NCBI GenBank assembly: GCA_032718475.1
Contig: JAUCBJ010000285.1
Coordinates: 1-37,330 of the forward strand
Source: Nemertoderma westbladi
Lineage: Eukaryota; Animalia; Xenacoelomorpha
Reading direction: 5' to 3'
DNA: 37,330 nucleotides
Both the position numbers and the translations under genes were made by a program. Shown here one piece after another: positions 13,956 to 37,054 of this stretch (positions within the stretch are counted from its first letter, which is position 1; the number at the start of each line of letters is the position of its first letter). The notes beneath the pieces were generated by a model, which was not told the origin of the DNA, made no database searches, and was given only the letters and a program-made list of their open reading frames with translations.

Positions 13956-16900
13956 AGTCTAAGTAATATTTTGCCTTCCAGCTAAAATCTCGCAAAAAAT
14001 TCGAGATATATATATAATTTAATCGAAAATACGGTTAAATTATTTGTCAAATTATTGGTTGGTCCCAAAATGTCAAATAAATTCGCAATACAATATTGCG
14101 AATTTAATAGGATATAGTTATAGCAAATACCAGTATAATATTTAAACAAAATATTATTCTATAGCTATTATATAGCATTTAAATACCGGTATGACACAAA
14201 ATAATTTCTGAATCTAATTCAAAATATTCAAAAATGAACTTGCCACCCAAATATTTCTAATTTTACATATATAGCTCTAATCAACGCAATTCTAATTTCA
14301 AATATTATATGTATCCACTAGCGCGTGGCTACACCACTCTCTCTCTCTCTCTCTAACTTGAGCGATTCAAAAAACCATGGCCGGCTAAACCTAACTATCC
14401 TAACTAATAAATTGAGTTCAGCTTCGCAGTTAAACAACCGGTAATTTTTCACTGCTTCCACAAATACAATGGTGCCAACAGAACAACTAACCTTGTTTGC
14501 TGTGAGATTCCACGTCCGCGTCCAAAGTTTCAGGCTCTTCGCTGATTGCAAACCGAACCCGCAGACCCACACGAACCCCAAACTCAGAAGCTCCGTCTTG
14601 CCATGTATCTCCAGATGGTATAAAACAACTAAGCGGTTATCTAACATACCAGTACAAAACTCTAGATTTTATTACAAAATAATTTTGACCAAAACTGAAT
14701 TCTCACAAACCTAGCTAAAATTTTCAAAAAACTTACTAATTACAGTTTGCCCTAATAGCCTAATGAACTGCTGTATTTGCGATTAGTAAACGCACTACCG
14801 TACATACACTGTTACGCAGTACGGTAAGTAAAATAGTACACCAGCCTAACAGCCTAATGAATACTGTATGTGGAACAGCAAAACAAATATCTTTTCTACC
14901 GTACACAGTAACAGCAAATCAGCCTAATTCACCACTGTACTACTGTATTGCGACTAATGAATACTGTAATCTAACTTAACAGCCTAAAGAATACACTCTT
15001 TACTGTTGCAAGCAACAGCAAATATCACGTGCTTTACTGTTAAACTAGCCACCCCTGTACTAACTGCAGAACTGTCAAAGACATACAAAGACGACGTGCT
15101 TTACTGTTAAACAGGGGTGATCAGGAGCATGCTATTACTACTGTAGGGCTGCTAAATACAAAACCGCTACTTACCGTTGGATTGCGCTAACCTGCCATCC
15201 GCTAATATATTTTACTAATTTTCTACGGCTCCTGCAAATCGCTTGTTCCTTTCTCTACCGATCGCTCGATAGAGAGCTAACTGTTCGAATATATGAGCCA
15301 CGCGGGAATAACCAAAACAATAAACCCGAATCGGCTCCCTAAGCTACTTAAAACGAGTGTGAGAGGCTTTACACTCAGAGTATATTCTTATGGCCTAATC
15401 TTACTGCTAAAACGCGCTAATAACCACGTCCTTTCTAATCGCAAATACTGGGGTTCCCTAACGGAATATGTGAATGTGAGAATATTTAAATAATCAAAAA
15501 AGGTGCAGTGTCTTATCAGGGACTAATACCTACTATAGGTCTAAACTTGCCTTCGGCTGGCTTTAGGCCAGCAATTTACTACTGCGTTCTGCGTACTGGA
15601 TACTGCGATCTAACTTATTGCCTGCTAATTTCAAATAACCGCCCAGCGTGAATAGTTTACGGTACTCCAAATTATTACCTTAACTACTCTCCGCTATGCT
15701 GCGTACAAATTCTTAATTTTACTAATTAATTACAGTCACAAATATGAAACAGCGTACTAATTACTAAGTGTTCCAGAATGCGTTATTCTAGTTTATTACA
15801 CAACGGGTTGCACTAGTAACAGCCTAAATACTGTATTATTTTCGACCTAATCAGTAATTATTTATCGTAAACTAAGAAATAGAAATCAATCAAAGGAAAA
15901 AGGGCGCCTATCTAAGCATTCATGATTTATTAGGCACACTTTAGCAACACACCAATCAGCGTAACAATCAATAATTAATACTTACCAATTATAGTTCCTA
16001 ATGTACAATTCACAATCAGCAGTCAGCAATTCACAGTTCACAACTTGCAATCTACAGTTCGCAACGTAGTTTGCGACGCAGTCTACAATGCAGTTCGCAA
16101 TGTAAAGCACGAAGGCCTCTCCCGGGTACATCTAGGCTTCCTAACTAACCCGATTCCTGCCCCCCTAATACTACAAAATAGAGACAAAATCTGGATCATC
16201 AGCCCCTTAATTACTGTACCAGCGAGCTGTCTTCTCTCTACACTGCTAACTTCCCGCCCGTAACGGTGACCCCCGCCAGCGTTGCTTGCCTTTGAATCCT
16301 CCGCACTCCCTTTGTCGCTAACTCCCCGATGCGCCCGCCGCGCCTACCGGTACCTCAGCCCTCCATCTAATGGGTAGCTACCGTAACAGCGCATGCAATC
16401 ACAAAGTGTGACAGTCTAAGGAAATCTCGTGGGATTATTGCATCTAAAAGAATTACATAGAACCATTAACTAAAGGGTAGAAATCATAGTTCCGATTGTA
16501 ATTAGCAGTAATCATTGGGATCGAATTGAGAAACACACCAAGAAATCAGTAGAAATTACAAATTAGCGAATTATTGCAAGAAATAATTGAAAAACAGAAA
16601 ATATGCAAAATACAGAATAATTCAGTACAGCAGAATAGTGAGAGATAGATTACAATAATTACGATTACAAAGCACATACCGGAAATACCGCCAATTTATA
16701 GGTGATTCACGAAGGATGATGCAATAGTTATCTGATTGGCTCCCCAATCCGCGCTACCATTAGACCAACCTGGAAGCAGTTAGGCCAATAAGGAAGCCGG
16801 ATTGTGAACCAATTGCTCCCCGAAATCACAAATCGTCACCATATATGGTAATTTTGGCGATGCTTAATTTAGCGGTACTAATAATATGATACATAGAAAT

Positions 16901-16998: not shown

Positions 16999-17190
16999 TG
17001 TTACCCTGGAACTATTTACTTATATTTATTCCAAAATTACCTAGGTAGGACTACATACTGTATAAAATGGATAAATTCAAATATGGGCGTTTTACTTTCC
17101 TTATCTAAATATGATTGCGCGTCTTTATGGCTTATCTAATAATTATACTGTATAACGACTAATATAGGTACAGCGCCATATATCGTAACA
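16999..17190. repeat. Possible short LTR (candidate 5' LTR of element B)
   Basis: Only the inverted termini TGTTAC...GTAACA; no second copy, PBS or TSD seen. Confidence 0.2.
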
Positions 17191-17438
17191 GGCGGTGTAG
17201 AGAATAATATGATATTAGACCTTATATTGCCAATTAATGTGTTTGGTAAGTACAGTTCACTAATCCACACTATGTACTTACAGCTGATTTACACATTATA
17301 CATTCCGTACTCCTATATCTGTTGTACTTATTGTGAGTAACATATCTTTACCCATAATTACATCAATATATTGTACTTTGTTCATTTTAAATCAATAAAT
17401 GTTTTCATTTATGGATATCGCTTTCGCGTTATCCAATA

Positions 17439-17538
17439 GGCACTTCAAATATTGAAAAATACGAGATTCGGAAAATAAGCAAAGTTGAGATTTCAACGCA
17501 CATTTATAGGTTTTCTGGACCGCTGAATCAATTGAAAG
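17439..17538 (-). repeat. Left part of an inverted ~175-bp satellite-like unit split by element C
   Basis: Joined to 28606-28670, its reverse complement matches the units at 28690-29036 (ACTTTCAAT.GATT.AGCGG.CCAGA.AACC.ATAAA..TG.GTTGAAAT). Confidence 0.8.
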
Positions 17539-18527
17539 TGTTGCCGTTATTCCTACACCAGGGGGGAAAAACGCCGATGCTGGAGACGTGACTTAACAGA
17601 CCACCGAGCCCCGGCCAGTCACCGGATATTGATTGTGGGGAGGGAATATTTTCTAAGATGCAAGTTTGCGGTTGAGAAAAGCTGCATTAGTTGGATATAC
17701 TCTTTAATGTAACTGAACTCTGTTGAACCTTGTTCAACAATATTGAAACTTGATTAAGAATAATTTTGGGCTTCCCCAAATCAATATACACCAAATATTC
17801 ACAATAATTATACACGATAATATAAATCCCTACGGTATATTATTTAATAACCCACTGTTCGCTCAGAATTTTAGCCTACCTAATGTTCCTCAGATTTTCC
17901 CTCAGTCCCAGTCTTAGTACCGTAGTGTCGGTGTCGGTCGACCCTTTCGCATGTCCGTCCCACCCCTCACGAACCCCGAAGGGATTGGTCATCGAGAACC
18001 AGTACGGCTTAGGTCAGGGGGCAGTCGTTAGTTGGCCACCTGTTCACGTGTCCGCTCCACCCCTCACGAACCCCGGGGTTCGATCATCGAGAACCAGAAC
18101 GGCTTGGCTACTAAGGGGCCGTCGGTGCCCGTCGCAAATCCCTGACACAAGCAGTCAGCGTTCCGAGTTCTTTTCAGTCTCGTAGTAGCTGCCGTTGGCC
18201 AGGGACCGCTAAGGGCAGTCCTTGTCCTTTAGGCCTGGCGCATTACCAAATCCACCCCTACAGGCAGCAGGAAGTTGGCCAGGGCCTAATAGTACTCAGG
18301 CTAACCTGAATACTGCTTGCATTTTCCATCCCCCCTGGCCCTTATAACTATGAAATTATTCCCGTACCCTGTAAGTTGCCCCAAAGTTCGCCCATAAATC
18401 GCCCCCAGTTTATTGAATGTGCCCAAAACCCATGGTCCCGCACCCAGTAGTAATATCGGAATAATCAATTTTAAATAAATACAAAAATATTCAACTCGCG
18501 TTATGGAAAGTTGAAATACCGCGAACA
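17539..18527 (-). repeat. 3' LTR of element C (989 bp)
   Basis: Direct repeat of 26994-28600 lacking 27401-28018; two substitutions noticed by eye (GATTGG/GATCGG, TTCACG/TTCGCG). Confidence 0.96.
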
Positions 18528-18536
18528 GTCCCCCCC
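18528..18536 (-). promoter_or_regulatory. Polypurine tract of element C
   Basis: Minus strand reads GGGGGGGAC immediately before the TGTTCGCGG LTR start, which fixes the element orientation. Confidence 0.85.
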
Positions 18537-18693
18537 AATGACCTTCGTGAAGTCTGTCGGTCGATTGAGTTTGCGTAGGTCATTCCCAATATAAAAAATC
18601 CCAAATTTAATATTGCATAGTTTTTAATTAATTTGGCCTAGAGTTTGTATAAAAATAAATGTTCGATAAATGTTCCTGGAATATCCCAATCCA

Positions 18694-21294
18694 TTATTTC
18701 TTTTTCTGGTACGCCTTTCGTCTCTTCGCCCTTCGACTCTCATCGATCGCTATGGCTGGTAGAGGAGCGTCAACATCCATTGTGAGTAACGCTTCGGCTT
18801 GTCTCCTGGCGGCTCTTCCTTTCGAAGGCAACGGTATCATGTCGGTTCGTCTTTCCAACTCGGAGTTGCGTGCCTCTAGGAACCATTCTCCGTCACCGAA
18901 CTCCTCTTTATACGAATATAATCGTCTAATAACTTCGAATGGACCGAATAATCCGGCGCTCAGTAGCAGATCCACGTAATGGAAGGGTAGCGAGGCCGAC
19001 GTGTGGAGGCGTTCCGGGAAGGAGAAATATCCGCACGCCATCTCCTGCGCGATATTCCGAGCGTTTCTCCGAAACTTGGTCTTTAAGTGGCTGTTTGCGT
19101 ATGTTTCAAACATGACCATATTTCCCATAGCGGTAACGTCTTTGGTTGGACATTTGATATAGCAGCGGGGGCTAGAGGAATGTCCACGGAAACCGCACGT
19201 GGTGCAGAGGTTATAAAGAATCGGGCAGACGGAAACGTCGTGGCCCGATGTCGCGCAGTATGGGCAATAGAGTATCCCGAGGAGCTGGAGGCATGAATCG
19301 GTAACCCGATTCCTTCTGCTGCGTGGGCACTGCTCCGAACCGCAGTCGCCGCATACCTCCAACTGCATCTCTCGACCGGGGAATATCGGAATCGGGACGC
19401 CGGCGTAGTATTCGAGTCGTCGGTCGCTCTTCGGAATATTCTCGGTGGTCGGTAGCCCGCGGAATGCTGGGCTTTTGCGTAGTATGTTCTCGCTTCGATA
19501 ACCCTCTTTGTGTCCCGCTGGTCTCAGCTCGGACGACCGTTTCTGGCGGTGGATCCATTCAGTTTGCTCGGCGTACCAACGAGTTAGTCGCATAGGGTCC
19601 TGAGGAACGGCGGGTGTAGAAGCTACCGCTGGTCGGCGAAGGGGTGCCGGGGTTTTAGATGGAGGGATACCGAGGAGATCGTCGGGTGTCGGCGCATCGC
19701 TGGGGCCTTCCTCGACCAGTATCGCTGAGCGGGTCCGTTGTTGGCTGGTACTCGGAATCTCCGACGACCAATCTTCGCCGCCCGGGAAAGGATACGGGGA
19801 TAACCGTTGGCATATGTCGCCGAAGTCGCTCAATGCAGCCGTAGTGGCTACCTCTCTCGCGGGGCTACCGGAGCCGCGTGGGGTGTAGACGCCTGCTCTC
19901 TTCATCGGTTCGGCCGAGGCAACCCGTTTGGCGGCTGGTCCATACGCGGCCTCCGGCTCGAGTTGTCGCTTTGGGGTGGAGAGTAGAACACCCTCGTTTA
20001 GCCATATCTCTTCCCCTTCCGAGGAGATCAGAGGCTCCTCCGCACCGAGAAGTTCGGTAATCGTAGGGATGTCGTAAGGTCCGCTCTCGTCCCAGGAATC
20101 GATAACGGCGGGTGTTTTCGATTCTCCCGGTGTAATGTTCTCGACCGCTTTAAACGCATGGTTTATAACCTCGTTCCAATCGTAGTCGACGAAGGAAAGG
20201 GGGACCGCCGTAATAAGGTTATCGAGAGTTTTACAGATAAACTTAGCGACGGTGTAGCATTCCATAACGACGTAGATATAGCTCCGTCGATCGGGATTCT
20301 CCCACCTTTGGTGTATCGTCCACTTCCGATCGACGTCCTTCCATCGACCCTCTCGCTCGCTCTTTATCTCTAATCCCGGGTATCCGCCGTATATTTTATT
20401 ATAGTCCCGGAATTTCTGGGGTTTGAAGTCGATACCGCCGTTGAGCACAGCGAGGTAGCCGATCCCGGATTTCGTCGGTCTCACTTCTTGGAATCCTCGC
20501 ATGAACTCGGCGAATCGTAACCAGGCTAGCAGCGTTTGAGTGTCGATGCAATGGCTAAGTGCGTTGAGGTCGTTTCGTCGGTTTCTTCCTGCGGGAGCGT
20601 TCGCGTAGTCGTTCCGGACGTCCGCCTTGATATCCGACCCGATTTTAATGACGTCGAAGTCGAAGAGGATCTTTTGGATATCCGGAGGCAGCAACCAGAT
20701 CGCTCCGGCTGCCTGCACTTCCTGTCTGGGTGTCAGGAATATTCGGCACACCAGTACCAAACCGTCCAGGGTTCCGAGGACGACGACTAAGGATCGACCG
20801 TATTCTTTCGCCCCGTACTTTTCCTGGTAGTCGTCGCGGTTTTGGATAATCGATACGCGTTCCTCTCGAAGCGTCGCCGTACACTCCGACAGGTTTTCCC
20901 AGTGGGCGAGGTACGTACTCTTGTCGTCGACGAAACTTTGACATCTCGCCAACGTAATCGCTTTCGAGGTGGGCGTCGCGTTTCCCTCGTTGTCGTAGAT
21001 CAAACATCGGGATCTGTAGACGCTCTGCCGGAACGTTTCCCAAAACGACGAATCGTCCCCTCCGGTTGCCTTTGCGTTCCGAGTTCTTTTCAGTCTCGTA
21101 CTAGCATCGGCTAACCGGAGGGCTCGTAGATTCTTAGAATCCGGTCCCTCTCGCCCGGTGAATTTAACTTCTCGTACGTTCTCATTTAGCAGAATGCTCC
21201 ACTTTGTATCAAAGTCAGGGGATCCAGGTTGCGAATATTCCAGTAGATCTATCGTGTTACGTAATTCGCCGATAATTTGGCGATTTGGGTCCAT
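18694..21294 (-). CDS. Accessory 866-aa protein: degenerate DEDDy (WRN/RNase D-like) 3'-5' exonuclease-like domain, disordered linker, Cys/His zinc knuckles
   Basis: Intact ORF in the env position. LPPDIQKILFDFDVIKIGSDIKAD, CIDTQ, SGIGYLA and RWENP..YIYVVME resemble the WRN-type exonuclease pattern (by eye). C-terminal CGDCGSEQC, CPYCATSGHDVSVC, CTTCGFRGHSSSPRC; basic tail RRAKRRKAYQKKK. Confidence 0.75.
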   Translation of the reverse strand: MDPNRQIIGELRNTIDLLEYSQPGSPDFDTKWSILLNENVREVKFTGREGPDSKNLRALRLADASTRLKRTRNAKATGGDDSSFWETFRQSVYRSRCLIYDNEGNATPTSKAITLARCQSFVDDKSTYLAHWENLSECTATLREERVSIIQNRDDYQEKYGAKEYGRSLVVVLGTLDGLVLVCRIFLTPRQEVQAAGAIWLLPPDIQKILFDFDVIKIGSDIKADVRNDYANAPAGRNRRNDLNALSHCIDTQTLLAWLRFAEFMRGFQEVRPTKSGIGYLAVLNGGIDFKPQKFRDYNKIYGGYPGLEIKSEREGRWKDVDRKWTIHQRWENPDRRSYIYVVMECYTVAKFICKTLDNLITAVPLSFVDYDWNEVINHAFKAVENITPGESKTPAVIDSWDESGPYDIPTITELLGAEEPLISSEGEEIWLNEGVLLSTPKRQLEPEAAYGPAAKRVASAEPMKRAGVYTPRGSGSPAREVATTAALSDFGDICQRLSPYPFPGGEDWSSEIPSTSQQRTRSAILVEEGPSDAPTPDDLLGIPPSKTPAPLRRPAVASTPAVPQDPMRLTRWYAEQTEWIHRQKRSSELRPAGHKEGYRSENILRKSPAFRGLPTTENIPKSDRRLEYYAGVPIPIFPGREMQLEVCGDCGSEQCPRSRRNRVTDSCLQLLGILYCPYCATSGHDVSVCPILYNLCTTCGFRGHSSSPRCYIKCPTKDVTAMGNMVMFETYANSHLKTKFRRNARNIAQEMACGYFSFPERLHTSASLPFHYVDLLLSAGLFGPFEVIRRLYSYKEEFGDGEWFLEARNSELERRTDMIPLPSKGRAARRQAEALLTMDVDAPLPAIAIDESRRAKRRKAYQKKK

Positions 21295-21851
21295 ATTTAC
21301 GATTATATCCGTTACAAATTAGATCAGTTAATTATAAGTCCAGAAAGTCTGAAACTATAGCGATAGCAGAATAATTCAGTTTTTTTTATTTAATTCAGTT
21401 TATTAAATAACATTGCTATATAGACATCTATCATCTTATTGCTAATACATTCAGCATTTACAGTTACTATAGCTATACATAATATCCAACCAGTTTTTTA
21501 TGACTTTTTTGTCCTTTTTTTTCCAATTCTTTTCTTTGACCTCTTTTATACCTTTTTTTTGTCTTTTTTCATTTCATTATTATTTCATCTCATTTCATTT
21601 ATTTCCACATATATTTCAACACATTTAGTTCCACCATTTATTTCACATTTATTTATTTCCACATCATCATTGGGTTTATAGCCCCCCGGCTATCATCATT
21701 TGTTATAAGCGCAGCACCAGGGTGCGCATCATTTCATTTTCATCAGTATACGCGTCATCATTCAGGTTTATAGTAGAGTTGTCTGATCCTTTTCATCGTT
21801 TCCAACTATATTCAATCATTTTCTTTGGTTAATCTTTGTCGTGGAAGGGGT

Positions 21852-22262
21852 GTTACGCGTCAATCTGGGATCTACAGCTGGACTCGTTACACCGCCTACG
21901 CCCCAAACTGCGCACGTAACGGACAATGAAGACGCTAGGAGTGAAGTCACGTGGGTGCACCAGGGACCCACCAGAATAACACTCCCAACAACATAAAGCT
22001 CAGTCGACGAAGTCATGTGGGATGGGGTTACGCAACATTCTGGGATCTACAGCTGGACTCGTTACACCGCCTACGCCCCAAAATCCACGCAACGGTCCCA
22101 CCAGAATAACGCGACTGAGAAACATAAAACCCTCTATCGTCGAAGTCATGTGGATGCACCATGGACCCACCAGAATAACGGGATAGAGGGGGTGTTGCGC
22201 GGCAATCCGGGATCTACAGCTGGACTCGTTACACCGCCTACGCCCCGAACTGCGCACGCAAC
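21852..22262 (-). ncRNA. Cluster of six predicted structured RNA modules (two families, three copies each)
   Basis: An invariant 38-mer at 21867, 22042 and 22209, and a second motif at 21938, 21999 and 22130, each closed by complementary arms that differ between copies. Confidence 0.65.
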
Positions 22263-22541
22263 GGACAACATAACATACTGCAATGAATACAATGAATTCC
22301 ACTTCAAATCTTTTCCATTTCCAATAATCCAATATCATTGGTCCCGATGACCAAAATCAGGGTAAACAATACATAAACGACCCTGCGTCAGTCGAAACAT
22401 CTGCAGGGTGATGCTGGACTCCACATAACACACGAGGAAACACAAATACCATTGCGTGGTTACAGTTGGTTTAAGGGGGGTCCATAACTCGTTGTCGATA
22501 AATCACAGTTTTTAAGAGTTTGTCAACATGATGAGAAGGGT

Positions 22542-23894
22542 TTAAACGCATTTATAATTGTCACCAATGTCTGCAGCAGGATCCGTAGTAGGGAACTTAT
22601 CACCTCTTGTAGAATCACCACTGTCATTGCCTTCAAGAAGGCACAGCTTCTGGATAGGGCGTTGGTAGTGGCCCTTTGCCGTTCGTATCGTCACAGTCCT
22701 CGCAAGTCCGTCTTTGCTTGGGTGTATGGTCACGACCCGCGCCACAGGCCAGTGAACGCGGTCTTTGAGATCTTCTTTAACTAGCACCATGTCGCCAACT
22801 GCGACGTTCCGGTAGGTGTTGTTCCATTTCCTCCTGGTCCGGAGGGTTATGAGGTATTCCTGGGCCCAAATTCTCCACCAATGCGCTGCCAACGCTTGGG
22901 CCTTTTTCCAGTTTGTATGTTTCGCGATCTCGTTGGGATCCGGGAACATGGTTTCCGGGAGGAGGTGGGTTTTGGGTCTCCCCAGTAGATGGTTAGGAGT
23001 GAGGGACTCAACTGAGGCGTTCGCCATCCGGGTATTATGGCAGATTAGTCCGTGCTCTCCCATTATTGGTGTCAATGTTATCAACATCATTATTATCATC
23101 AACAACCTTATTAGCCACCAAAGCATGGGCACGCGCCAATGTCCGTCTTTAAACGTGGCCTGGTCGAGAACGTCCATACAATATTGGTCCTCTTCGGATG
23201 GATTTTCGTCCTTTTCCGCGAACTCCTGGGTCTCCAAATTAAAATATTTCGTCATCTCTCGTTGGGTTTTCTCGGTTTCCAGAAACAAATCCTCGTCGAG
23301 ATCCGAAGCTGAGCAGTAACCCACGGAGGTTACATTCTCTTTAATCTGACATTTGGGAAGGTAGGTATAGGTGTCCGTGGTTTCCTCCTTAATGCCGCAG
23401 AGTGTCCATCCCATTATTGTTCGTTCAGCATAAAATCCGTCATCCTGGTTTATAGATCGGGCGATATCTCCGGTGGGGATGTGTAGTTCCGGTGTATCAA
23501 GTCCGATCAGTAGGGTGATACGGTTTACGTCCAACTGCGGACACCTCAGGTCTACATCGTCCCGGTCCAATTGTATGAGGGGGGCGTACTCGGCTGATTG
23601 TCGGAACCGCACCCGGAGGTCTGTGTGTACCAAGGCGTTCTTTATGGTTAACTTAGCCGTTTCGTAGCCCTTCATCACTCCTTCCATCTGGAGTTGCACC
23701 TCCCCGGACTCTACCTCTCTGTTATCGGTGATGGTTTGTATGGGCCGTTTACAAGGCTCATATTCTAGGCCGAGTTGCTCGAGAAAATCCCGGTCGATGA
23801 TGGTTCCGTCGGACCCGTTATCGAGGAATGCGAGTGTCGTCAAAGATTTGCCGACTCCTTGGATCCTTACTGGGATTACCTTTGCGAAAACCAT
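22542..23894 (-). CDS. Aspartic protease fused in frame to the BEL integrase C-terminal (DUF5641-like) region; RT-RNaseH-IN core deleted
   Basis: AFLDNGS; RTIMGWTLCG; RT N-terminal remnant DGHWRVPMLW; then directly SLTPNHLLG, WWRIWAQEYL, VGDMVLV, WPVARV, DGLARTV, RPIQKLCLLE. Confidence 0.9.
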   Translation of the reverse strand: MVFAKVIPVRIQGVGKSLTTLAFLDNGSDGTIIDRDFLEQLGLEYEPCKRPIQTITDNREVESGEVQLQMEGVMKGYETAKLTIKNALVHTDLRVRFRQSAEYAPLIQLDRDDVDLRCPQLDVNRITLLIGLDTPELHIPTGDIARSINQDDGFYAERTIMGWTLCGIKEETTDTYTYLPKCQIKENVTSVGYCSASDLDEDLFLETEKTQREMTKYFNLETQEFAEKDENPSEEDQYCMDVLDQATFKDGHWRVPMLWWLIRLLMIIMMLITLTPIMGEHGLICHNTRMANASVESLTPNHLLGRPKTHLLPETMFPDPNEIAKHTNWKKAQALAAHWWRIWAQEYLITLRTRRKWNNTYRNVAVGDMVLVKEDLKDRVHWPVARVVTIHPSKDGLARTVTIRTAKGHYQRPIQKLCLLEGNDSGDSTRGDKFPTTDPAADIGDNYKCV

Positions 23895-23905
23895 GTAGCG
23901 GCGAT

Positions 23906-26509
23906 TTATAAGTTAATCGTGGCCGAAATATTTGTTACTTGTGGTGTAGCGGTGGAGATTTTAAACGGGTTGGTTTCTCTCCGTTGGGTTGTCCGGGTTC
24001 CTTTGAAGATGTGGTTTGTTTCTCCTCTTCGCCTGGCTTCGATCCGAAAGGGGAGGGTAGTAAAATCGAAGTTCGCGGGGATGTGGAGGAGCGTGTGATG
24101 GCGTTGGTCGTTACAGACAGTACAGCATGATCTTTGGTCGCACTCCCGAACATAGTGACCTGTTCCAAGACACCGGAAGCATCCTCGGTGTTTCATTATC
24201 GCCTCGAAGCGTGGGACAAGTTCGGCGAACTGAAACTTTCTGCAGAATTCCACTTTGTGTTTCTCCCCACAGAAGAGACATATAGTGGAGGCTGTGGTGC
24301 CTTCCCTTTCGGGTGCCCAATTCGCTAGGTAGCATGCCCATTCTTCTGCTAAGGTCGGTTCCTCGTAATCCTCGTCATCCGAGTCCTCAGCCATACTGAT
24401 GGCCATCGCACTCACAGGAGTAGGGCGGAATCTTGGGTTTGGAGTGGGTGCCCTGCTCTGGTAATTGCTCTCCATTGCGTCCAACTTGGCGAGACTTTGT
24501 TTCGAGAACATCGAGTCATTCATGGCTTCGGAGATATCGTCCAGGAATGCCGACATTTCGAGGAAGCTGGGATCTTGATCTGGATGTCTGCGCCGGAGAT
24601 CTACGCATTTATAGGCCCACTTACTTTGCAGCCATCCGGGGAACTTCCGGGCGATCTGTCGGAGGTTTAGAATGTTGTTCACCTGGTCCTCCTTATTTAA
24701 GGGTTTCAGAGTGTAGTAGGCATCCTTCATGGAATCTGAGAATTCCTGGAGGTTCTGTGGGTCCCCTAGTGATCCCGCGTCTTGTATCAGTTTCTCTAGA
24801 GTTTTATTAATTATAGTTCCGGTATTTCCGTATCTTTTATCTAGAGTTTTCCATGCGTCATAGTATGCCTCATGAGAACCTCCCTCAAAACATGCAACAA
24901 TTCTGCGTGGTTTGTCACCCAGGTATTGCGATAAATATACCAATTTCTGTGCGTCGGCTATGTCCGTTGATCCGATCTGCGCAAAGAACCGTTTCTTGAA
25001 TCTGAGGTAATCGACGGGATCTCCTTCGAAGGTGCGAATCTCCATCTTCGGCATGGCAAGGCGGTTCTCCAACGCCCGGATGATGCTGACGTCGTCTGAA
25101 CTGGAGTGACTCGGAGGGTTATAGTCATTGGCACTCACTCCCATACTTGATGGATCAATAATAGGTGGAGTTTTAATAATGACGCGGCTGCGAGTTTGTG
25201 GTGTTGATGTAAATGGGTTGTTTGATCGGGGAGTGGCGTCCCGTTCCGAGTCCTTTTCAGGCTCGTACTTGGGTACACTCGCTGTCGTGGTGTTGGATAG
25301 GAAATAGGGTTCCTCATTCTTTAGCCTAGCCGGTGGGGGATGGAACACCGGTGCTTGTGCCGATAGCGTAGACTGTTTGGTAGGCGGGATTTCGGGTTTC
25401 GGAAGTTTCGCCGCTGTCGGTATAAATGACTTTTCTAATTCCGGTACCGGGATTGGTTCATATTCCTGATCTATATCCCTCTCCCAGTCCTCGTAGAGTT
25501 GAATATCTCGTTCTATAAGTGCGGCTTCGTATTCCGCGAGTTTTGCAATATCCGCGTTCTTTTTGTGGATGAGAATTGCTTGGGCCTCGGCGTGTTGTTT
25601 ACGCATTTCTGCTTCCCATTTACGTTGTTCGATCTCCCGTTCGGCCTCTCGTCCGCGTTGTTCGGCCTCCTGTTTGCGTTGTTCGGCCTCGTGTTTGCGC
25701 TGTTCGGCCTGTCGTTCGTCCTCTCGTTTGCGTTGTTCGTCTTCTCGCCTGCGTTGTTCGGCCTGTCGTTCGTCCTCTCGTTTGCGTTGTTCGTCCTCTC
25801 GCCTGCGTTGTTCGGCTTCCTGTTCACGTTGTTCGGCCTGCCGTTCGGCCGCTTGTTCGGCCTCTCGCCTTTGTGTTTCTGCAGCTAATACATCTTGCTC
25901 GGCTTGCAGTTGAATATACTCATCTTCCATCCGAGCTTTGAGGGCTAATGCCTTCCGCTCTCGCAGTTGGTCTCGGAGTGGCGGCGCCCCTTGAGAACTG
26001 CGCGCTGAGCCGGATATCTCGCTCCTAGCGCTGGAGTGCTGATTTCTGGTGGACCCCATTCTTTTGCGATGTACTCCTGTCCTGATGCTGGAGGATCGTA
26101 CTGATTCCGCGTCTGTTCTTTCAGCCCTCTTGTAATACTGTTCCTCATAGCCTCTCACAAGGCTGAGGGTCCTCCGGTGTTGTTTGCGGAACCCATCTAG
26201 ATGTACAACGTGTTCTTCCAGCTTGGGGTAGTTTTCCAGATCGGTGGGGGGAACAAGCTCTTGGTACGCCTGTATCATTCTTTCGTACCGCTGTAGGATA
26301 TTTCGGATACTTTGAAGCTGAGTTTGTACCTCATTGAGGGGGGTTTTGACTCCCTTGAGTTGTTTCTCCATCCGTTGATACGCTCGGGTTACTCCGCCTT
26401 TAAGAGCCCCTAACCGACGGGTCATGTTTTTGACGTTTGGTACCTCGTCGGCTTCCGAGTCTGTGTGGTGATCCATCTCGTCGGTATCGGATACGTTATT
26501 TGTTGTCAT
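23906..26509 (-). CDS. gag: BEL/Pao Gag, 867 aa
   Basis: LKGGVTR N-terminus, EQR-rich coiled-coil repeats, RTFEGDPVDY...AWKTLDKRYGN core, three knuckles CLFCGEKHKVEFC, CFRCLGTGHYVREC, CTVCNDQRHHTLLH. Confidence 0.93.
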   Translation of the reverse strand: MTTNNVSDTDEMDHHTDSEADEVPNVKNMTRRLGALKGGVTRAYQRMEKQLKGVKTPLNEVQTQLQSIRNILQRYERMIQAYQELVPPTDLENYPKLEEHVVHLDGFRKQHRRTLSLVRGYEEQYYKRAERTDAESVRSSSIRTGVHRKRMGSTRNQHSSARSEISGSARSSQGAPPLRDQLRERKALALKARMEDEYIQLQAEQDVLAAETQRREAEQAAERQAEQREQEAEQRRREDEQRKREDERQAEQRRREDEQRKREDERQAEQRKHEAEQRKQEAEQRGREAEREIEQRKWEAEMRKQHAEAQAILIHKKNADIAKLAEYEAALIERDIQLYEDWERDIDQEYEPIPVPELEKSFIPTAAKLPKPEIPPTKQSTLSAQAPVFHPPPARLKNEEPYFLSNTTTASVPKYEPEKDSERDATPRSNNPFTSTPQTRSRVIIKTPPIIDPSSMGVSANDYNPPSHSSSDDVSIIRALENRLAMPKMEIRTFEGDPVDYLRFKKRFFAQIGSTDIADAQKLVYLSQYLGDKPRRIVACFEGGSHEAYYDAWKTLDKRYGNTGTIINKTLEKLIQDAGSLGDPQNLQEFSDSMKDAYYTLKPLNKEDQVNNILNLRQIARKFPGWLQSKWAYKCVDLRRRHPDQDPSFLEMSAFLDDISEAMNDSMFSKQSLAKLDAMESNYQSRAPTPNPRFRPTPVSAMAISMAEDSDDEDYEEPTLAEEWACYLANWAPEREGTTASTICLFCGEKHKVEFCRKFQFAELVPRFEAIMKHRGCFRCLGTGHYVRECDQRSCCTVCNDQRHHTLLHIPANFDFTTLPFRIEARRRGETNHIFKGTRTTQRRETNPFKISTATPQVTNISATINL

Positions 26510-26697
26510 TGTAACGCCTCGTCGATGGCGAGATACGCGATGTCGTAAAACAGTTCCTCGTAGGTATTGTACTCAGCTTGAACCACCCGAACAGTAATCC
26601 TGAATCGTCCGACGTTCGTTCCTTGTACCTCAACTTCGACGTGCCAGATTCCTGGCTCAACTTGAATTATATCAATGGGTGTGATCGATACTTCCAT
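26506..26697 (-). CDS. 63-aa upstream ORF overlapping the gag start (ATGA)
   Basis: ATG start; its TGA overlaps the gag ATG; protein-like alternating hydrophobic pattern followed by an acidic helix. Confidence 0.5.
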   Translation of the reverse strand: MEVSITPIDIIQVEPGIWHVEVEVQGTNVGRFRITVRVVQAEYNTYEELFYDIAYLAIDEALQ

Positions 26698-26863
26698 TCC
26701 CTGTTAACAACTCTCCAAATATGTGATCTGCCGACTACGAATTGGTTAGATCGAGTTTGCTGATTAATTAAACCACGACTTTGTCTCAACTCAAATACCA
26801 GAGTTTCCTCGTAGTGGGTGCTGGCAAGCACGTAGAGAGTTTTTGAAGAGTATTGAAGGATTC

Positions 26864-26993
26864 TCAACTTCCACCAGTTGAAGTTGACCACGATAATTAT
26901 TCTTAATTTTGACACCCTGTCAAAATTAACCACGTGAATTATTCTTAATTTTGACACCCTGTCAAAATTAACCGCATTAATTATTCTTAATTT
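26864..26993. repeat. 42-bp-period hairpin repeats at the expected PBS position
   Basis: TTAATTTTGACA-CCC-TGTCAAAATTAA at 26903-26929 and 26945-26971; variant TCAACTTC-N8-GAAGTTGA at 26864-26887; AATTATTC at 26895, 26937 and 26979. Confidence 0.9.
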
Positions 26994-28600
26994 TGTTGCC
27001 GTTATTCCTACACCAGGGGGGAAAAACGCCGATGCTGGAGACGTGACTTAACAGACCACCGAGCCCCGGCCAGTCACCGGATATTGATTGTGGGGAGGGA
27101 ATATTTTCTAAGATGCAAGTTTGCGGTTGAGAAAAGCTGCATTAGTTGGATATACTCTTTAATGTAACTGAACTCTGTTGAACCTTGTTCAACAATATTG
27201 AAACTTGATTAAGAATAATTTTGGGCTTCCCCAAATCAATATACACCAAATATTCACAATAATTATACACGATAATATAAATCCCTACGGTATATTATTT
27301 AATAACCCACTGTTCGCTCAGAATTTTAGCCTACCTAATGTTCCTCAGATTTTCCCTCAGTCCCAGTCTTAGTACCGTAGTGTCGGTGTCGGTCGACCCT
27401 GTCGCGTGTCCGTTCCACCCCTCACGAACCCCGAAGGGAACGATCATCGAGAACCAGCACGGCTTGGCTAAGGGTCGGTCCAGTCGGTAGACTCTGTCGC
27501 GTATCCGTACCACCCCTCTCGAACCCCGAAGGGTTCGGTCATCGAGAACCAGTACGGCTTGGCTAGGAGTCTGTCATGTCGGTGGACCCGTTCGCGTGTC
27601 CGTTCCACCCCTCACGAACCCCGAAGGGTTCGATCATCGAGAACCAGAACGGCTTGGCTAGGGGTCCGTCAGTTCATCACAGAAACCCAACCACCTAGGC
27701 TTTCCGAGTCCGTTTCAGGCTCGTAGTCGCTTCAGCAGCCGAGAAACTGCTCCGAACAGTCGGTAGGCCAGTAGAGTCTAGTCGAGTCTAGTCCTTTGTC
27801 TTTCGACCCCATCGCGTGTCCGTTCCACCCCTCACGAACCCCGAAGGGAACGATCATCGAGAACCAGAACGGCTTGGCTAAGGGGTCTGTCGTCGGTTCC
27901 CGTCGCAAATCCCAGTCAAGCAGTCAGCGTTCCGAGTTCTTTTCAGGCTCGTAGTAGCTGCCGTTGACCCGAGACCGCTAAGGGCAGTCCTTGTCAAACC
28001 AGTCCTGTGGCCAGCCCTTTCGCATGTCCGTCCCACCCCTCACGAACCCCGAAGGGATCGGTCATCGAGAACCAGTACGGCTTAGGTCAGGGGGCAGTCG
28101 TTAGTTGGCCACCTGTTCGCGTGTCCGCTCCACCCCTCACGAACCCCGGGGTTCGATCATCGAGAACCAGAACGGCTTGGCTACTAAGGGGCCGTCGGTG
28201 CCCGTCGCAAATCCCTGACACAAGCAGTCAGCGTTCCGAGTTCTTTTCAGTCTCGTAGTAGCTGCCGTTGGCCAGGGACCGCTAAGGGCAGTCCTTGTCC
28301 TTTAGGCCTGGCGCATTACCAAATCCACCCCTACAGGCAGCAGGAAGTTGGCCAGGGCCTAATAGTACTCAGGCTAACCTGAATACTGCTTGCATTTTCC
28401 ATCCCCCCTGGCCCTTATAACTATGAAATTATTCCCGTACCCTGTAAGTTGCCCCAAAGTTCGCCCATAAATCGCCCCCAGTTTATTGAATGTGCCCAAA
28501 ACCCATGGTCCCGCACCCAGTAGTAATATCGGAATAATCAATTTTAAATAAATACAAAAATATTCAACTCGCGTTATGGAAAGTTGAAATACCGCGAACA
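26994..28600 (-). repeat. 5' LTR of element C (1607 bp)
   Basis: TG...CA termini; direct repeat of 17539-18527 plus 618 bp; followed by the TSD. Confidence 0.96.
27394..28195 (-). ncRNA. Array of six ~70-nt conserved cores forming predicted rod-like hairpins inside the LTR
   Basis: Cores start at 27401, 27496, 27591, 27811, 28019 and 28116; covarying closing stems; C(UUCG)G cap on the element-sense strand in units 1-5 (shortened in unit 6). Confidence 0.7.
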
Positions 28601-29036
28601 GAAAGTATTATAGAACCCTGAAGACTTAGTGGTTCGGCATTTTTGGTGCACCAAAATTAGGGAGGGGCACTTTTTCCCTGATTGTGCTGTACCAATAATG
28701 ACGTACCAGTAAGACTTGAGGCTTCAATAATACTTTCAATCGATTCAGCGGTCCAGATAACCTATAAAAATGGGTTGAAATGAAAACCTTGTGGTATTTT
28801 CTGAATATCGTAATTTTGAAAATTTGATGTAAGTCTACTTGCCACGCCCTAATTTTGGTGCACCAAAAATGATGTACCACTAAGAATTGAGACTTCTATA
28901 TTACTTTCAATCGATTAAGCGGGCCAGAAAACCCATAAAAATGCGTTGAAATCAAAACTCCTGAGTATTTAACGAATATTGCAATTTTGAAAATTTGAAG
29001 TGCCCCGCCCTAATTAATTATAGTGCACCAAAAATT
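28601..29036. repeat. ~175-bp satellite/MITE-like repeat units with palindrome TTTTGGTGCACCAAAA
   Basis: Remainder of the inverted unit (to ~28670), then two diverged forward units (~28690-28860, ~28860-29036). Confidence 0.75.
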
Positions 29037-29340
29037 CCACTTCCCTTACATTCTTATATATGTAGAGTGCAGAGTGTAGTAGAGTGCTGCATACGAATCA
29101 GAATCAGTAAAAAAAGCCCCTATATAAAGAATTACTATCTCACAAATGACCTTGTAAAACTCGAAAATTTCAAAAAATTTCTGCTGGGGACCAAATTTTG
29201 AGGTGGCACCCACATCGAGAAGTTGAAATCTAATTGCAACGCCGTTTTTTTGCAAAAGATGCGCCATTAAATTTGACTAATTCTCGTAAACAATTGGGCT
29301 GGTACATAATGTTGTTGCATAGATACAGTAATTAAAAACT

Positions 29341-30159: not shown

Positions 30160-32759
30160 TCAAATGGAGAGAAGCTACGATTCCTCATCAAGTGCTTGGA
30201 AGGTCCCCCGTAATTGATGGCATTAAAGTTCATTGGACACCCTGATGGACTAAGAAAAGTTTGGAATCCACTAAACATCAGGTATGGTAATAGGACTTAC
30301 ATAGCTAGATACTTGTATGCGAAAGTAGTAGTGCCCAGGAGGTTCCCTAGTAATGGAATCAGAGTTTTCCGATGAGGTTCAGGAGATCTGTAGACAGTTA
30401 GACTGACTGGTTAACTCCTTTATGTTACACCGAGTATGAGAGTCAAACCTCATACGATGAGGATAGCGGACCAGACATCACTCGTTATTACATAGCGAGT
30501 TTGATAAGGTGAGTGAACAAAGGCTTTGATAAACAACAAAGTACGGATCCCTAGAGCGGAGTTAAAAGCGGCATTATACACTACTGCCATCGGCAGAAAC
30601 ATAATGGAACAGATAGAATAATAAATAATCCATTGGATAAAACTGTTTATTGGACAGATGCATTACTCGTTCTAGAATATCTTACTAACGAAGTCTGCCA
30701 GTTCAGCATCTTTGTCACCAACCGAGGAGCTGTTATACTTAGTCGGACTAATATAGACCAATGGAGACATTGCCCTGGAACCATTTATCCAGCCAACATC
30801 GCCTCCAGAGGAGCTACACCTAAAGAGCTGATGGATACGCCAGATGACCCTGGAGGTGGCCCTGACTTCCTAAGTAAAGAGGGGGATGAATGCCCCCCCC
30901 CCCCCATCTTACTATGGCTGAGAACAGACAAGCCAAGGGAGCAGAGACCGTTAAACCAAAAACTCGGATGGGTAAATCAAAACTGTTCAAAACAGCGATA
31001 GATCTGTCGGTACTGCATACTGCAGATGACGATAATAAAGATCCTAAGCAAGTCCCAGTTAAGGCAGTTGTTTATATATGAGAGCGGGATTGGAAGACTG
31101 GTATTCCTGATGTCTTTGAAGGACTCTCTCCTATTATTCACAGAGCGATGGCGTATTATATTTCGTGGAATAGGCTTTGTAAAGCCATAACCTATTCAAA
31201 ACGGTGTTTCCATCACCACTATTCCAAGCCTAAGACAACCGGTGATGCCATCCCATGAGTATTTGAAAAGGTCAATGCCATTAAAGACCTTCCCACTTAT
31301 TGGCTACCTACCACGTTTCTTGCTGATAAGATCACTTACCAGGAGCTTGATGATACCAACAAGCAACTACTGAGACTTCTACAATGTCAATGAGGATCCT
31401 GAGAAGTATATCCTGTTGTTGAAAAATCCACAGAGGATTTATTTTCTAGCATGATGTTTGATGGGTTAATACGTGTCGGAGGGAGATTAACCAACGCACC
31501 CCTTTCCTTTGACACAAAGTTTCCCATACTGGTTGGTAATCTTGAAATACAAATCAAGATGATTGTAGACGTACACAGTAGGCTTTATCATGCTGGTAGG
31601 TAACGAGTTCTTAGCGAAATTAGAACTCGCTATTATTTTAATAAGCCGCTTAAAGCGTTAAATCAAGTTCTTAGGAACTGTATACCCTGTAGGAAAGCAT
31701 TTAGTAGGCCTTTAACCCAGCGAGTGGCAGAATTACCTAGGGAAAGAGTAAGCTGTTATGAACCACCCCTTACTAATACCGGCATGGATTTATTTGGCCC
31801 TATTGAAGTCTATCGCGCTAGAACTATAGTCAAGCGATGGTGCGTTATATTTGTTTGTATGACTTGTAGAGCAATTCATCTGGATATGGTGAATGTTTTT
31901 TCTACCAATAGTTTCATACTCAGTTTACGCTGACAAATCACTCGTTTTGGGACTAGCAACACCATTATTTCGGATAAAGGTACCAACTTCATTGGAGCCA
32001 ACAAGATTAAAGATTACATCAACAACTGGAACCAACGACAGGTAGACGATCAGGTGAAAGTGAAAGCATCCAGCTGGACCTTCAACACCTCCGATGCTCC
32101 TTGGTGGGGAGGAAGTTGGGAGAGACTTATATGTCAAGTTTCAAGTACATTTCACTTTGTAATGTCGTGCCGCGCATATCTCACTGACGAGCTCCTGCGA
32201 ACACTGATGGAATAAATCGCCGCCTACCTGAACAAGAGACTGCTTATGCCAGTCTCCTCAAGTCCAGATTCCCTAGAAGCGCTAACACCCGCACATTTTC
32301 TACTCATGAAGCTGGTGGCCATGCTTCCAACTTCGGATATAAATGACGGGGATGAATACTGCAAACAAACTTGGCAAACTTTTGCAGTTATTATCCCTCC
32401 GTTTCGCTGATCATTTTGAGAAATACTATCTTCCGACGCTGCAACTCTGAACTAAATGGTTTGCGCTGCAACAAAACATCAGCTCTGGAGACATGTTTTT
32501 AATTGTCGATTCGGATCTTCCCCGTAAGAGGTGGCAGATAGGTCGTATCATCGAGACCCATATATCCAACAACGGTTTAGTGCGATCAGTAGAACTCCTT
32601 GTTATGAGGCGAAACCACAAGAAGGAAGGAATAGTCTTCGAGACTCAACAATTCAATCGCCCAGTTGGACCTCTGTGTTTATTAGGGCGAGACCGAGAGT
32701 TGTCCGGCAACTATGGTAAGCAGGAGACTCTACCGACGACTACCTCCCAGTTCCAATGA
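30160..32759 (+). pseudogene. Decayed, internally deleted BEL/Pao element D (gag fragment, RNase H, integrase, DUF5641-like tail)
   Basis: EKLRFLIKCLEGPP...RYGN (~30170-30290); IPRAEL, YWTD, QWRHCPG..PANIASRG; GLIRVGGRL, H..H/CIPC, TGMDLFGP, RAIHLD, SDKGTNFIGA, PWWGGSWERL, LTPAHFL, WQIGRI..GLVRSV; many stops and frameshifts; protease and RT absent. Confidence 0.88.
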
Positions 32760-35607: not shown

Positions 35608-36788
35608 ATTATTGGTAAACGTAGAGTATTAGGAAGGCAAAGTTCAGATCATCGTGTCTCGGCTAAACCATGCTCTGGGTAGACCTTGGAAACGACTTGC
35701 CTCTTCTCATTGACATTGCTTATTGCAATATTGCTCTCATACCATAGTCCTAAAATAATATGTATAGTAGGAGATGTCAATTTAACAGTAAATCTGTCAA
35801 AGTAAATCTGTTAAACCCTTTGACCATCTGAAATTCTAGTCGATTAATATATCGTGGCACCCACCGATATACTTAAAAGACAAAATTTCTAGAATCAGTG
35901 GTTAACGTCCCCAGACATGTTCTGGAATAAATCGGTGCCTATCTTAATTTAAAAATAATAAAATTTACGGGAATAAATTTAAATTCATAACCTCTCATGA
36001 ATTAAATAAAATTTAGGACAATTGTTATAATATTTCCTAAAATTAATCAATTAATAGATCACGGGAGCGGAGATTCACCCTATTACAACAAGTGTGAGAG
36101 AATCCCCTAGCATGCCTTTAAATAGCTGACAAATTTAATAAACGTCACATATAAGGGGAATAATAATAACCACTATTAAATATTAAATAGCATTATTAAA
36201 GCACTATTAAATAGCATCGCAGATCTGTGTGTATGAGAAATACCCTAATTTATTACTGCTAGCTTTGCATAATGTCACCTTGGCAACGACAATGATAGAA
36301 TTAAATATAGTCAGAGAACAATAGAAAGCTTGCCTCATTGAATAGAATGCCTAGTGTATAGTATCTAAGGATACACAACAACAATGTGACATTCTGTAAA
36401 GCATTTGACTAACAGACAACCGGCCCCAAATTGTGCGAATTGTGGCATGAATGTGGAATTTGTGTATTTGTCGGTGAATGTTACTACTAAAGTGTGTTTA
36501 CAGTAGCGAGCCGCAATTGTGAAAGTCGTCCCTTACCTGCGTCCATTATCTCTAGTATCTTGGAGCCCTAGGGACGAACAGTGGAGTGACTTGTGCTGGT
36601 TATTGTTGTCGTTGTGTAGCTACTACGTTGGCGAGAAGCACAGCAATGACAGTACATCAGCGCTGAGGATCTCAGGTTGTCCGGGGGCCGGTTGGGAGGG
36701 TGGTACAGGCAGCCACGCTCGCTAGCCTTTATTATTATCGATAAACTCCCCCATATAAAATGACGGAATTGATAGAGGAAGAGAGGAC

Positions 36789-37054
36789 GAGAACTCAGGA
36801 CCTCCGAGACACCGGCTCCCGAGAATCCAAGACTCTTCATATGCTTGAGAACTCGGGAGCTTTGAGACACCGGCTCCAGAGAATCCAAGACTCTTTGTAT
36901 GCTCGAGAACTCAGGAGCTTTGAGACACCGGCTCCAGAGAATCCAAGACTCTTCGTATGCTCGAGAACTTGGGAGCGTTGAGACACCGGCTCCAGAGAAT
37001 CAAAGACTCTTTGTATGCTCGAGAACTCGGGAGCTTCGAGATACCGGCTCCAGA
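36789..37054. repeat. 58-bp tandem repeat, ~4.6 copies
   Basis: Units start GAGAACT at 36789, 36847, 36905, 36963 and 37021. Confidence 0.95.

Follow-up and report, generated by a model that had tools for sequence, protein, structure and literature searches.

An internally deleted BEL/Pao retrotransposon of Nemertoderma westbladi with a predicted DEDDy-type nuclease gene and repeated RNA hairpins

The DNA analysed (the window) is a stretch of 37,330 nucleotides of Nemertoderma westbladi (contig JAUCBJ010000285.1), which contains at positions 17539–28600 an internally deleted copy of a BEL/Pao LTR retrotransposon; the element and its features lie on the reverse strand. The 5′ LTR (26994–28600) is 1607 bp long and the 3′ LTR (17539–18527) 989 bp, both with TG...CA ends, the difference being 618 bp of a repeat array; one unit of the shorter LTR combines parts of two different units of the longer one. 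Two mismatches were found in the 989 shared bases, the 5-bp target-site duplication GAAAG is present at both ends (17534–17538 and 28601–28605), and empty-site contigs joining both flanks without the element place its ends identically, which confirmed the boundaries, intact duplication and near-identical LTRs described in an earlier note on this DNA. A polypurine tract of seven G, read from the sequence (18530–18536), precedes the 3′ LTR by 2 bases.

Four ORFs are open in this copy. A 63-aa upstream ORF (26506–26697), whose stop overlaps the gag start, had no homologue in a word-index protein search. The gag gene (23906–26509) encodes 867 amino acids with a coiled-coil repeat and, by Pfam, DUF1759 and zinc knuckle matches. 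The following ORF (22542–23912; 456 aa stop to stop), in a frame different from that of gag here, joins a protease in frame to an integrase C-terminus, with Pfam matches to an aspartyl protease and to DUF5641 (integrase C-terminus). The last, ORF3 (18694–21294), encodes 866 amino acids. The count of four ORFs made earlier is correct for the window copy, but the break between gag and protease near 23910 seems to be a defect peculiar to it, since contigs of other copies diverge there and a distant relative (L006, below) has a single gag-pol ORF.

No RT, Peptidase_A17 or rve match was obtained by Pfam within 17539–28600, and the copy is without RT, RNase H, integrase zinc finger and integrase core; relative to the pol of L006, in which the PR-RT-RH-IN order is present, about 970 residues are missing as two gaps. 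The loss of RT, RNase H and integrase core reported earlier is thus borne out, and the element does not encode the enzymes of an autonomous one. The TG...CA LTRs, the short duplication of 5 bp, the DUF1759 Gag with knuckles, the Pao-type protease region and the DUF5641 tail are those of BEL/Pao (Belpaoviridae) elements and their non-autonomous deletion derivatives, which follow a TRIM/LARD-like logic, with the pol enzymes lost and the cis signals kept. The window element is a young, non-autonomous, internally deleted member of a high-copy BEL/Pao family.

The deletion junction (23004–23118) is a low-depth patchwork in which two gaps flank a short remnant of the integrase. Depth, which is summed over short contigs, is inflated in polymorphic stretches and is not a copy number, was 15,000–75,000 across all in-element bins of runs X1 and X3, compared with 347 and 210 at a position in the flank and 1406 and 1040 at the junction, the latter about 3–5 times a flank depth. 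Of 30 listed in-element rows, that of the junction was the lowest in each of the three runs (0.11, 0.07 and 0.25 of the median); in run X4 its depth was 20, close to the 22–38 of gag and protease. The depth of run X4 is uneven, and this run may be of RNA origin. Junction contigs were found in three studies, with two alleles within run X1, so that the deletion appears not to be confined to a single copy, an objection that the earlier note had itself raised, and contigs of other copies diverge from the window copy on either side of the junction. The parent family is high-copy; its deleted form appears to be a shared subfamily in the minority. The earlier view that the absence of RT defines a new system is not supported: in L006 an ORF3 relative follows a BEL pol that is intact, and the junction is the minority form in two runs.

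ORF3 is composed of a DEDDy-fold domain (20140–21063), a low-complexity linker, and a Cys/His zinc-knuckle cluster followed by a conserved helical domain (18925–19356), the latter two with residues invariant over 11 aligned proteins. Ten relatives were found by an HMMER search; word-index protein searches with ORF3 and with a first alignment (A1) gave none, Pfam named neither ORF3 nor its relatives, and no relatives were found in the viral_contigs set. The ORF3 profile matched EXD2 (3.6e-7) and Egalitarian (7.5e-5). The model of the exonuclease domain (pLDDT 68) was closest to the Nibbler EXO domain (Z 11.8, rmsd 3.7, 187 aligned residues), the ranks below being DEDD-family nucleases; Foldseek by itself gave a best E of 1.7e-3, with none at or below 0.001. 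Modelling of the full-length protein gave a poor result (pLDDT 43), the zinc domain could not be placed from it, and a fold search with it returned unrelated helical matches only; all Atlas leads for the zinc domain were below 0.9.

The motif residues D101-x-E103, D225 and Y341 are present in ORF3, the last acid being E345 where ExoIII has Y-x3-D; the placement of ExoI hinges on the alignment of an insert of about 50 amino acids behind the first motif, at which alignment A1 differed. A reading of A1 in which ExoI was deleted was dropped after realignment and modelling. All four acidic positions are kept in eight of the nine rows of alignment A2 that span every motif. ORF3 is accordingly modelled as a DnaQ/RNase D fold of the DEDDy type, similar to Nibbler, EXD2 and RNase D, with the acidic residues D-E-D-E retained, and the earlier description of a nuclease-fold/zinc-knuckle protein is upheld by the profile and structural matches. 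Among the 18 variants listed (from the best-supported 40 of 853 rows) 14 were synonymous versus an expected fraction of 0.29 (p = 2e-5); by this sequence test ORF3 evolves under purifying selection; neutral evolution would have weighed against the earlier proposal. ORF3 retains catalytic-type residues, so that an Egalitarian-like adaptor is no likelier a role for it than an active nuclease. Their retention is no proof of activity, since Egalitarian has putative catalytic residues that it can do without, according to the part of that report considered here (PMC13186709).

Nine loci with an ORF3 relative were retained; one is long enough to show pol, and most are without LTRs. Some loci matched the zinc pattern through ordinary knuckles and were excluded from the counts: L002, L003, L007 and L012, 4 of 13 metagenome loci, proved to be LINE ORF1s, and L014, the sole match in genome_contigs, a Gypsy gag. 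In L006 the ORF3 relative lies directly behind a single uninterrupted gag-pol frame (at least 2062 amino acids) with DUF1759, RVT_1, Peptidase_A17, rve and DUF5641, and by its predicted domains this locus is a distant autonomous BEL element. It contains 18 sense and no antisense copies of one 7-mer (shuffles give 0.86), which in 16 of the 18 caps a stem of at least four pairs, with free arms and all three reading frames used; this triloop hairpin is unrelated to the hairpin families of the window.

In the window element five such families (A, B, C, C2 and D) were recognised, all copies on one strand, with G-U pairs and UUCG or GAAA loops. Family A is an array of six units of about 95 nt in the 5′ LTR (27387–28196), each with a cUUCGg-capped stem and a bulge that may be K-turn-like or a 5-nt bulge, the invariant columns fitting either. 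Three copies of family B, a loop-E/T-loop-like motif, lie in the same LTR (27696–27733, 27924–27961 and 28228–28265), and the 3′ LTR retains two units of A and a single copy of B (17932–18192). Two further family B hairpins stand within coding sequence, one in gag (25238–25275) and one in ORF3 (21071–21108), in different reading frames. The intergenic region (21850–22264) holds family C, with three invariant 38-nt cores (21867–21904, 22042–22079 and 22209–22246), and family C2, with three stems, one of them around a C copy. Family D consists of three 42-nt leader repeats (26861–26993) forming palindromic hairpins, each with the 13-mer of the primer position; their number differs between copies, as seen at contig joints.

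In an arm-swap test each copy's own arms paired best, 2 of 720 permutations being as good in family A, 1 of 120 in B and 1 of 6 in C, the last too few for significance, and a pair test of family B gave 5 of 500 shuffles. Folding z-scores of −2.5 or lower were obtained for 3/6 copies of A, 4/5 of B, 1/3 of C, 0/2 of C2 and 2/3 of D; one A and one C2 copy folded no better than shuffles. Hammerhead, twister and HDV-like readings were unsupported on inspection by eye, and a search of Rfam, with its ribozymes, K-turn RNAs and viral elements, gave no match at the gathering score within 17000–29000 (best E 1.3) and none on the hairpin families. The hairpins are selected at the RNA level. The claim of hairpin families with compensatory changes therefore stands in substance, but the families number five instead of four and the changes are confined to the flanking stems, the cores being nearly invariant.

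In a protein/RNA-element pair of the Rev/RRE type, the RNA element would be expected to accompany the protein across relatives, a check proposed earlier; the ORF3 loci give a mixed picture. The distant L006 combines ORF3 with a multicopy hairpin, but of a different motif, and family B was present at none of the nine ORF3 loci; nor had it matches in viral_contigs. A multicopy hairpin other than family B was seen at two of the nine, strongly in L006 and as three copies in L011, and the remaining seven, mostly short fragments, had no hairpin family. Gag is at least as likely as ORF3 to be the reader of the hairpins, the reader being putative in both cases.

No tRNA primer site was found in the element, and a tRNA scan was also empty. 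The primer-binding position (26979–26991; +3 to +15 past the 5′ LTR) is not tRNA-like and is a perfect 13-nt complement of the LTR segment 27208–27220, a match reached by 4 of 5000 local shuffles, so that this segment, near a possible RNA start, is a candidate self-primer. In Tf1/sushi self-priming the primer-binding position likewise pairs with the element's own LTR and not with a tRNA; the window element differs in being BEL/Pao and not a chromovirus, in having the site three times in its leader and in an RNA start that is presumed. The duplex ends exactly at +3, where the primer 3′ end must lie. At L009 there is what we take to be a tRNA-type primer site, between ORF3 and a gag-like ORF, and self-priming is thus apparently not tied to ORF3.

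The preferred explanation, which we hold to be probable though well short of certain, is a deleted BEL/Pao copy mobilised in trans, whose predicted nuclease ORF3 and hairpins are accessories inherited from the parent family; the hairpins would be tags for its own zinc-knuckle proteins. L006, a distant relative whose copying enzymes are intact, likewise carries an ORF3 gene along with a multicopy hairpin of its own, which suggests that both features belong to the parent family. Other readings were weighed against this. It is quite improbable, in our judgement, that the element represents a lineage of stable satellites without RT, whose ORF3 would lack catalysis and act, like Egalitarian, as an adaptor on the hairpins, serving export or localisation and providing a helper with accessory functions. 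The junction shared by three studies, with its two alleles in X1 and its excess over the flank, speaks for such a lineage, and the similar X4 depths of junction, protease and gag, the in-frame protease/integrase-tail fusion and the presence of Egalitarian among the nearest solved relatives of ORF3 point the same way, as does the contact of its exonuclease-homology domain with stem-loops in the available part of the source (PMC13186709). However, an intact pol precedes ORF3 in L006, the junction is in the minority in X1 and X3, the window copy is also broken between gag and protease, the acidic site residues are conserved among ORF3 relatives, and family B is missing from all nine ORF3 loci.

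Possible, but on balance not likely, is a role of ORF3 as a counter-defence or RNA-quality enzyme that shortens or degrades small silencing RNAs, or cuts the 3′ end of the self-primer back to the duplex, while Gag or host proteins read the hairpins independently. Its best structural match, Nibbler, is a small-RNA 3′ trimmer, and the LTR/leader duplex stops at the very site required for a primer 3′ end; yet the fold alone gives no substrate, and L009 apparently has a tRNA-type site beside ORF3. Very unlikely, finally, are the LTR and intergenic repeats as ordinary tandem duplications or DNA enhancer repeats that fold as a by-product. Families A, C and D are indeed tandem arrays of variable copy number, invariant cores yield no covariation, and one of six A and one of two C2 copies fold like shuffles, but own arms are preferred in A and B, family B is scattered into two coding frames, all copies share one strand and have G-U pairs and UUCG or GAAA loops, and L006 has an equivalent design with a different motif.

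According to the preferred explanation, that of a deleted copy mobilised in trans, intact relatives would move the window element. Such helpers are inferred, since no intact member of its own family was recovered among the short contigs; depth and loose contig ends are indirect signs that they are present in the same genome. ORF3 and the hairpins would have been inherited as parent-family accessories and would not make up a new enzyme-less system. The hairpins would be recognised by zinc-knuckle proteins that the element itself encodes, possibly marking its RNA for packaging or RNP assembly; ORF3, predicted to be active, may trim RNA 3′ ends while its knuckles hold the element RNA, and an LTR-derived RNA piece may self-prime reverse transcription.

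BEL/Pao elements are usually described as gag-pol, with env in some; the window element differs in its extra nuclease/zinc ORF (in place of none or env), its long structured LTR and the lack of a tRNA primer site. The DEDDy fold of ORF3 is shared with Nibbler, EXD2, Egalitarian and the RNase D of Trypanosoma brucei (7c42/7c45), which also couples it to CCHC knuckles; ORF3 differs from these nucleases in its 9–18% identity, insert of about 50 amino acids, long linker, other Cys/His spacing, helical domain and location in a retrotransposon. A close parallel is in bdelloid rotifers, whose Juno and Vesta LTR retrotransposons and Terminons carry a third ORF behind pol for a DEDDy-type 3′-5′ exonuclease with acidic residues kept (DEED there, D-E-D-E here), of predicted activity in both cases (PMC5408684, PMC6431247). 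Those elements are Gypsy-type and Penelope-type and not BEL/Pao; the parts of these reports considered here note a Cys-His-Cys motif in place of a C-terminal knuckle cluster, describe no hairpin arrays and give no clear departure from neutrality, unlike the purifying signal in the window ORF3. The dispersed packaging signals of ssRNA viruses, as covered in part of one source (PMC6281560), similarly comprise many stem-loops with a common loop and free stems across coding sequence, as in L006 and family B, here in LTR retrotransposons and with a putative partner.

The literature searched yielded no account of a BEL/Pao element with an exonuclease ORF, with Repbase and GyDB entries, subscription papers and supplements outside its scope. 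A new kind of system is not established by these data. A DEDDy ORF3 is already known from rotifer Gypsy elements, and it is the BEL setting that is apparently new. A broader proposal, which we regard as rather unlikely, is that a BEL/Pao lineage encodes a Nibbler-like 3′ trimmer docked through zinc knuckles on family-specific hairpins (loop-E/T-loop-like, K-turn-like or triloop), shaping RNA ends such as that of the self-primer or disarming small silencing RNAs, and kept even by RT-less copies; if true, this would be a protein/RNA-element pair of a retrotransposon in which the protein is an enzyme. With an accessory nuclease/zinc-knuckle ORF present in two or more BEL elements that are very distant from each other, what was observed for DEDDy ORF3s in rotifers now extends to another LTR superfamily, and ORF3 becomes a protein family open to testing. 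Hairpin arrays of two unrelated designs are candidates for RNA tagging by such elements, and the deleted copy reveals which cis and trans parts may be retained without RT.

The element (17539-28600, minus strand) is a BEL/Pao retrotransposon with TG...CA ends, flanked on both sides by the five bases GAAAG. BEL/Pao elements are described as known from animals only (PMC3601003). The insertion target is a high-copy repeat of 171-bp units with inverted arms (window 17439-17538 and 28601-29200). The 5' LTR (26994-28600, 1607 bp) and the 3' LTR (17539-18527, 989 bp), both on the minus strand, showed two mismatches over their shared part and a difference of 618 bp in a repeat array; within the short LTR, one unit is chimeric, combining units 1 and 5 of its longer counterpart, so the array contracted by exchange between units. 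Gag (23906-26509) has Pfam matches to DUF1759 and to a zinc knuckle, the following ORF (22542-23912) matches to an aspartyl protease and to DUF5641, and ORF3 (18694-21294, 866 aa) none. An upstream ORF of 63 aa (26506-26697), the stop of which overlaps the gag start, gave no hits in a homologue search.

The window also contains a decayed second BEL element (8300-14000; gag, protease) in which the splice-donor-like 7-mer AGGTAAG occurs eight times in sense and never in antisense (0.6 expected). BEL fragments at 5-2983 and 30555-32759, one a protease-RT-RNase H region and one RNase H-integrase pieces, showed no DNA similarity to the element at 17539-28600. Two non-LTR RT ORF pieces (7386-8277 and 34130-35021; RVT_1 and DUF6451) are 99% identical, one with a 531-aa open frame, and a tandem array of a 58-bp unit (4.6 copies) lies at 36788-37054.

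Alignment to the pol of L006, a distant autonomous BEL element with an ORF3 relative, revealed two gaps of about 780 and 190 residues, through which RT, RNase H, the integrase zinc finger and the integrase core were lost. Depth and deletion joint were studied in contigs from four sequencing runs, six of nine runs containing part of the stretch. Summed contig depth, which is not copy number and is inflated wherever copies diverge, was 15,000-75,000 across all in-element bins for X1 and X3 against 347 and 210 at one flank position, and the family is thus high-copy in these runs. At 23086, the only listed position within the junction (about 23004-23118), depth was 1406 in X1, 1040 in X3 and 20 in X4, the minimum among 30 in-element positions in each, corresponding to 0.11, 0.07 and 0.25 of the median and to 3-5 times the flank. 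Contigs of other copies diverged from the window copy on either side of the junction and also at the gag/protease break (about 23910), and the contigs yielded no intact member of this family. The similar depth of junction, protease and gag in X4 (20-38) counts against the deleted copy being a minority form. Since contigs spanning the junction were present in three studies, with two alleles within X1, the deletion is not private. Non-autonomous retrotransposon derivatives are commonplace. We read the deleted form as a small shared subfamily inside a larger family in which intact members likely exist; given the low junction depth and the intact pol beside ORF3 in L006, absence of RT was abandoned as the definition of the system.

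A HMMER search of 1.84 billion representatives yielded ten ORF3 relatives on contigs of 2-19 kb, without a name or labelled 'hypothetical'. Common to them are a nuclease-like domain at the N-terminus and, at the C-terminus, a Cys/His cluster joined to a helical domain, the latter region with 16 invariant columns. The DNA pattern of the cluster matched 13 metagenome loci, nine of them ORF3 relatives; the other four were ruled out as LINE ORF1s. In L006, the only locus long enough for the upstream gene to be visible, a single open gag-pol of at least 2062 aa (DUF1759, RVT_1, Peptidase_A17, rve, DUF5641) is directly adjoined downstream by the ORF3 relative; in at least one autonomous BEL element, therefore, ORF3 is an accessory gene. 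A gag-like ORF follows the ORF3 relative in L005, L009 and L010. In one relative, P0002 (L010, 79-2022), the zinc/helical domain is doubled and the nuclease domain degenerate; the acidic residues are also absent from P0005.

A profile of the ORF3 N-terminal domain matched EXD2 (3.6e-7), Egalitarian (7.5e-5) and, weakly, WRN; RNase D of T. brucei, which combines a DEDD nuclease with CCHC knuckles, was the top match of the full-length profile. The domain model (pLDDT 68) resembled the Nibbler EXO domain (Z 11.8, rmsd 3.7, 187 aligned), with RNase D, EXD1, WRN and Egalitarian following closely; Foldseek likewise ranked these proteins, at E > 0.001. Realignment placed the site at D101, E103, D225 and Y341/E345; about 50 residues are inserted after the first motif, and the four acids are complete in eight of the nine rows covering all motifs. 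Within the best-supported 40 of 853 variant rows, 14 of 18 ORF3 variants were synonymous against 0.29 expected (p 2e-5), and neutral evolution, which the earlier note had named as contrary evidence, is thereby contradicted. Judged by fold and residues, ORF3 most likely trims RNA 3'-5' as an active enzyme held on element RNA. The putative catalytic residues of Egalitarian are reported to be dispensable (PMC13186709), and ORF3 may thus act by binding alone. Rotifer Gypsy-type elements and Terminons also carry DEDDy ORF3s, of undemonstrated activity (PMC5408684, PMC6431247); the activity of the BEL ORF3 is predicted. Searches of a paper library found no report of a BEL/Pao exonuclease ORF or of kink-turn-like arrays in LTRs.

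Five repeat families fold on the sense strand, where the earlier note had counted four hairpin families; z-scores were mixed, with one A and one C2 copy at shuffle level. Family A units, about 95 nt long, number six in the 5' LTR and two in the 3' LTR. Their stem is capped by UUCG, and an invariant GAUGA/GA segment would fit a kink-turn or a 5-nt bulge, two readings not separable here. Family B has six copies, four in the LTRs, one in gag and one in ORF3, in different reading frames in these two genes; its internal loop is presumably compatible with a loop-E/sarcin-ricin motif and its tip with a putative T-loop. Family C has three invariant 38-nt cores 5' of ORF3; C2 consists of three stems, a C copy lying within one of them, and D of three palindromic 42-nt repeats in the leader. 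Arms paired better with their own partners than when swapped in A (2/720 permutations as good), B (1/120) and C (1/6, a number too small for significance), and the family B pair test (five rows) was reached by 5/500 shuffles. Rfam gave no match to the families, and a family B model recovered no more than its six known copies from the window, with no hit in the nine ORF3 loci.

In L006 (110-10435) one 7-mer occurs in 18 sense and no antisense copies (0.86 expected), 16 of which close stems of at least four pairs whose arms vary; the copies fall in all three frames. This GUC-triloop hairpin, which runs through gag, pol and ORF3 into the 3' untranslated part, is a finding on its own. L011, the closest ORF3 relative of L006, carries three comparable hairpins with a UAU loop (666, 2056, 3492) in 3.8 kb, three being reached by 0/100 shuffles; the remaining seven of the nine loci, mostly short LTR-less fragments, showed no hairpin families. 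More than one ORF3-bearing element thus has multicopy hairpins, the motif differing between them. As their reader, Gag appears an equally good candidate as ORF3, and if Gag reads them they would resemble the dispersed packaging signals of RNA viruses (PMC6281560).

No tRNA-type primer site was found downstream of the 5' LTR. Positions +3 to +15 (26979-26991) are fully complementary over 13 nt to LTR 27208-27220, a complement picked out post hoc and matched in 4/5000 local shuffles; the 13-mer occurs three times across the leader. This pairing is a candidate for self-priming, and a 3'-5' trimmer could finish an LTR-derived primer. If 27208-27220 were the RNA start, A and B would fall in U3 and so come to lie in the RNA's 3' untranslated part. 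A link between ORF3 and self-priming is not general, since near the ORF3 of L009 lies what we take to be a tRNA-type site.

The deleted copy would be transcribed and packaged through retained cis signals, with intact relatives supplying the RT and integrase that copy it. The hairpins would tag the RNA for the element's own zinc-knuckle proteins, Gag or ORF3, and ORF3, tethered to it, would act as a 3'-5' RNA trimmer. We consider this overall picture somewhat better than an even bet, action of ORF3 on any one given substrate less certain, and a dedicated pair of ORF3 enzyme and hairpin elements, the boldest reading, unlikely. What stands, with the RT-less framing dropped, is the ORF3 family, the selection on ORF3 and the hairpin arrays.
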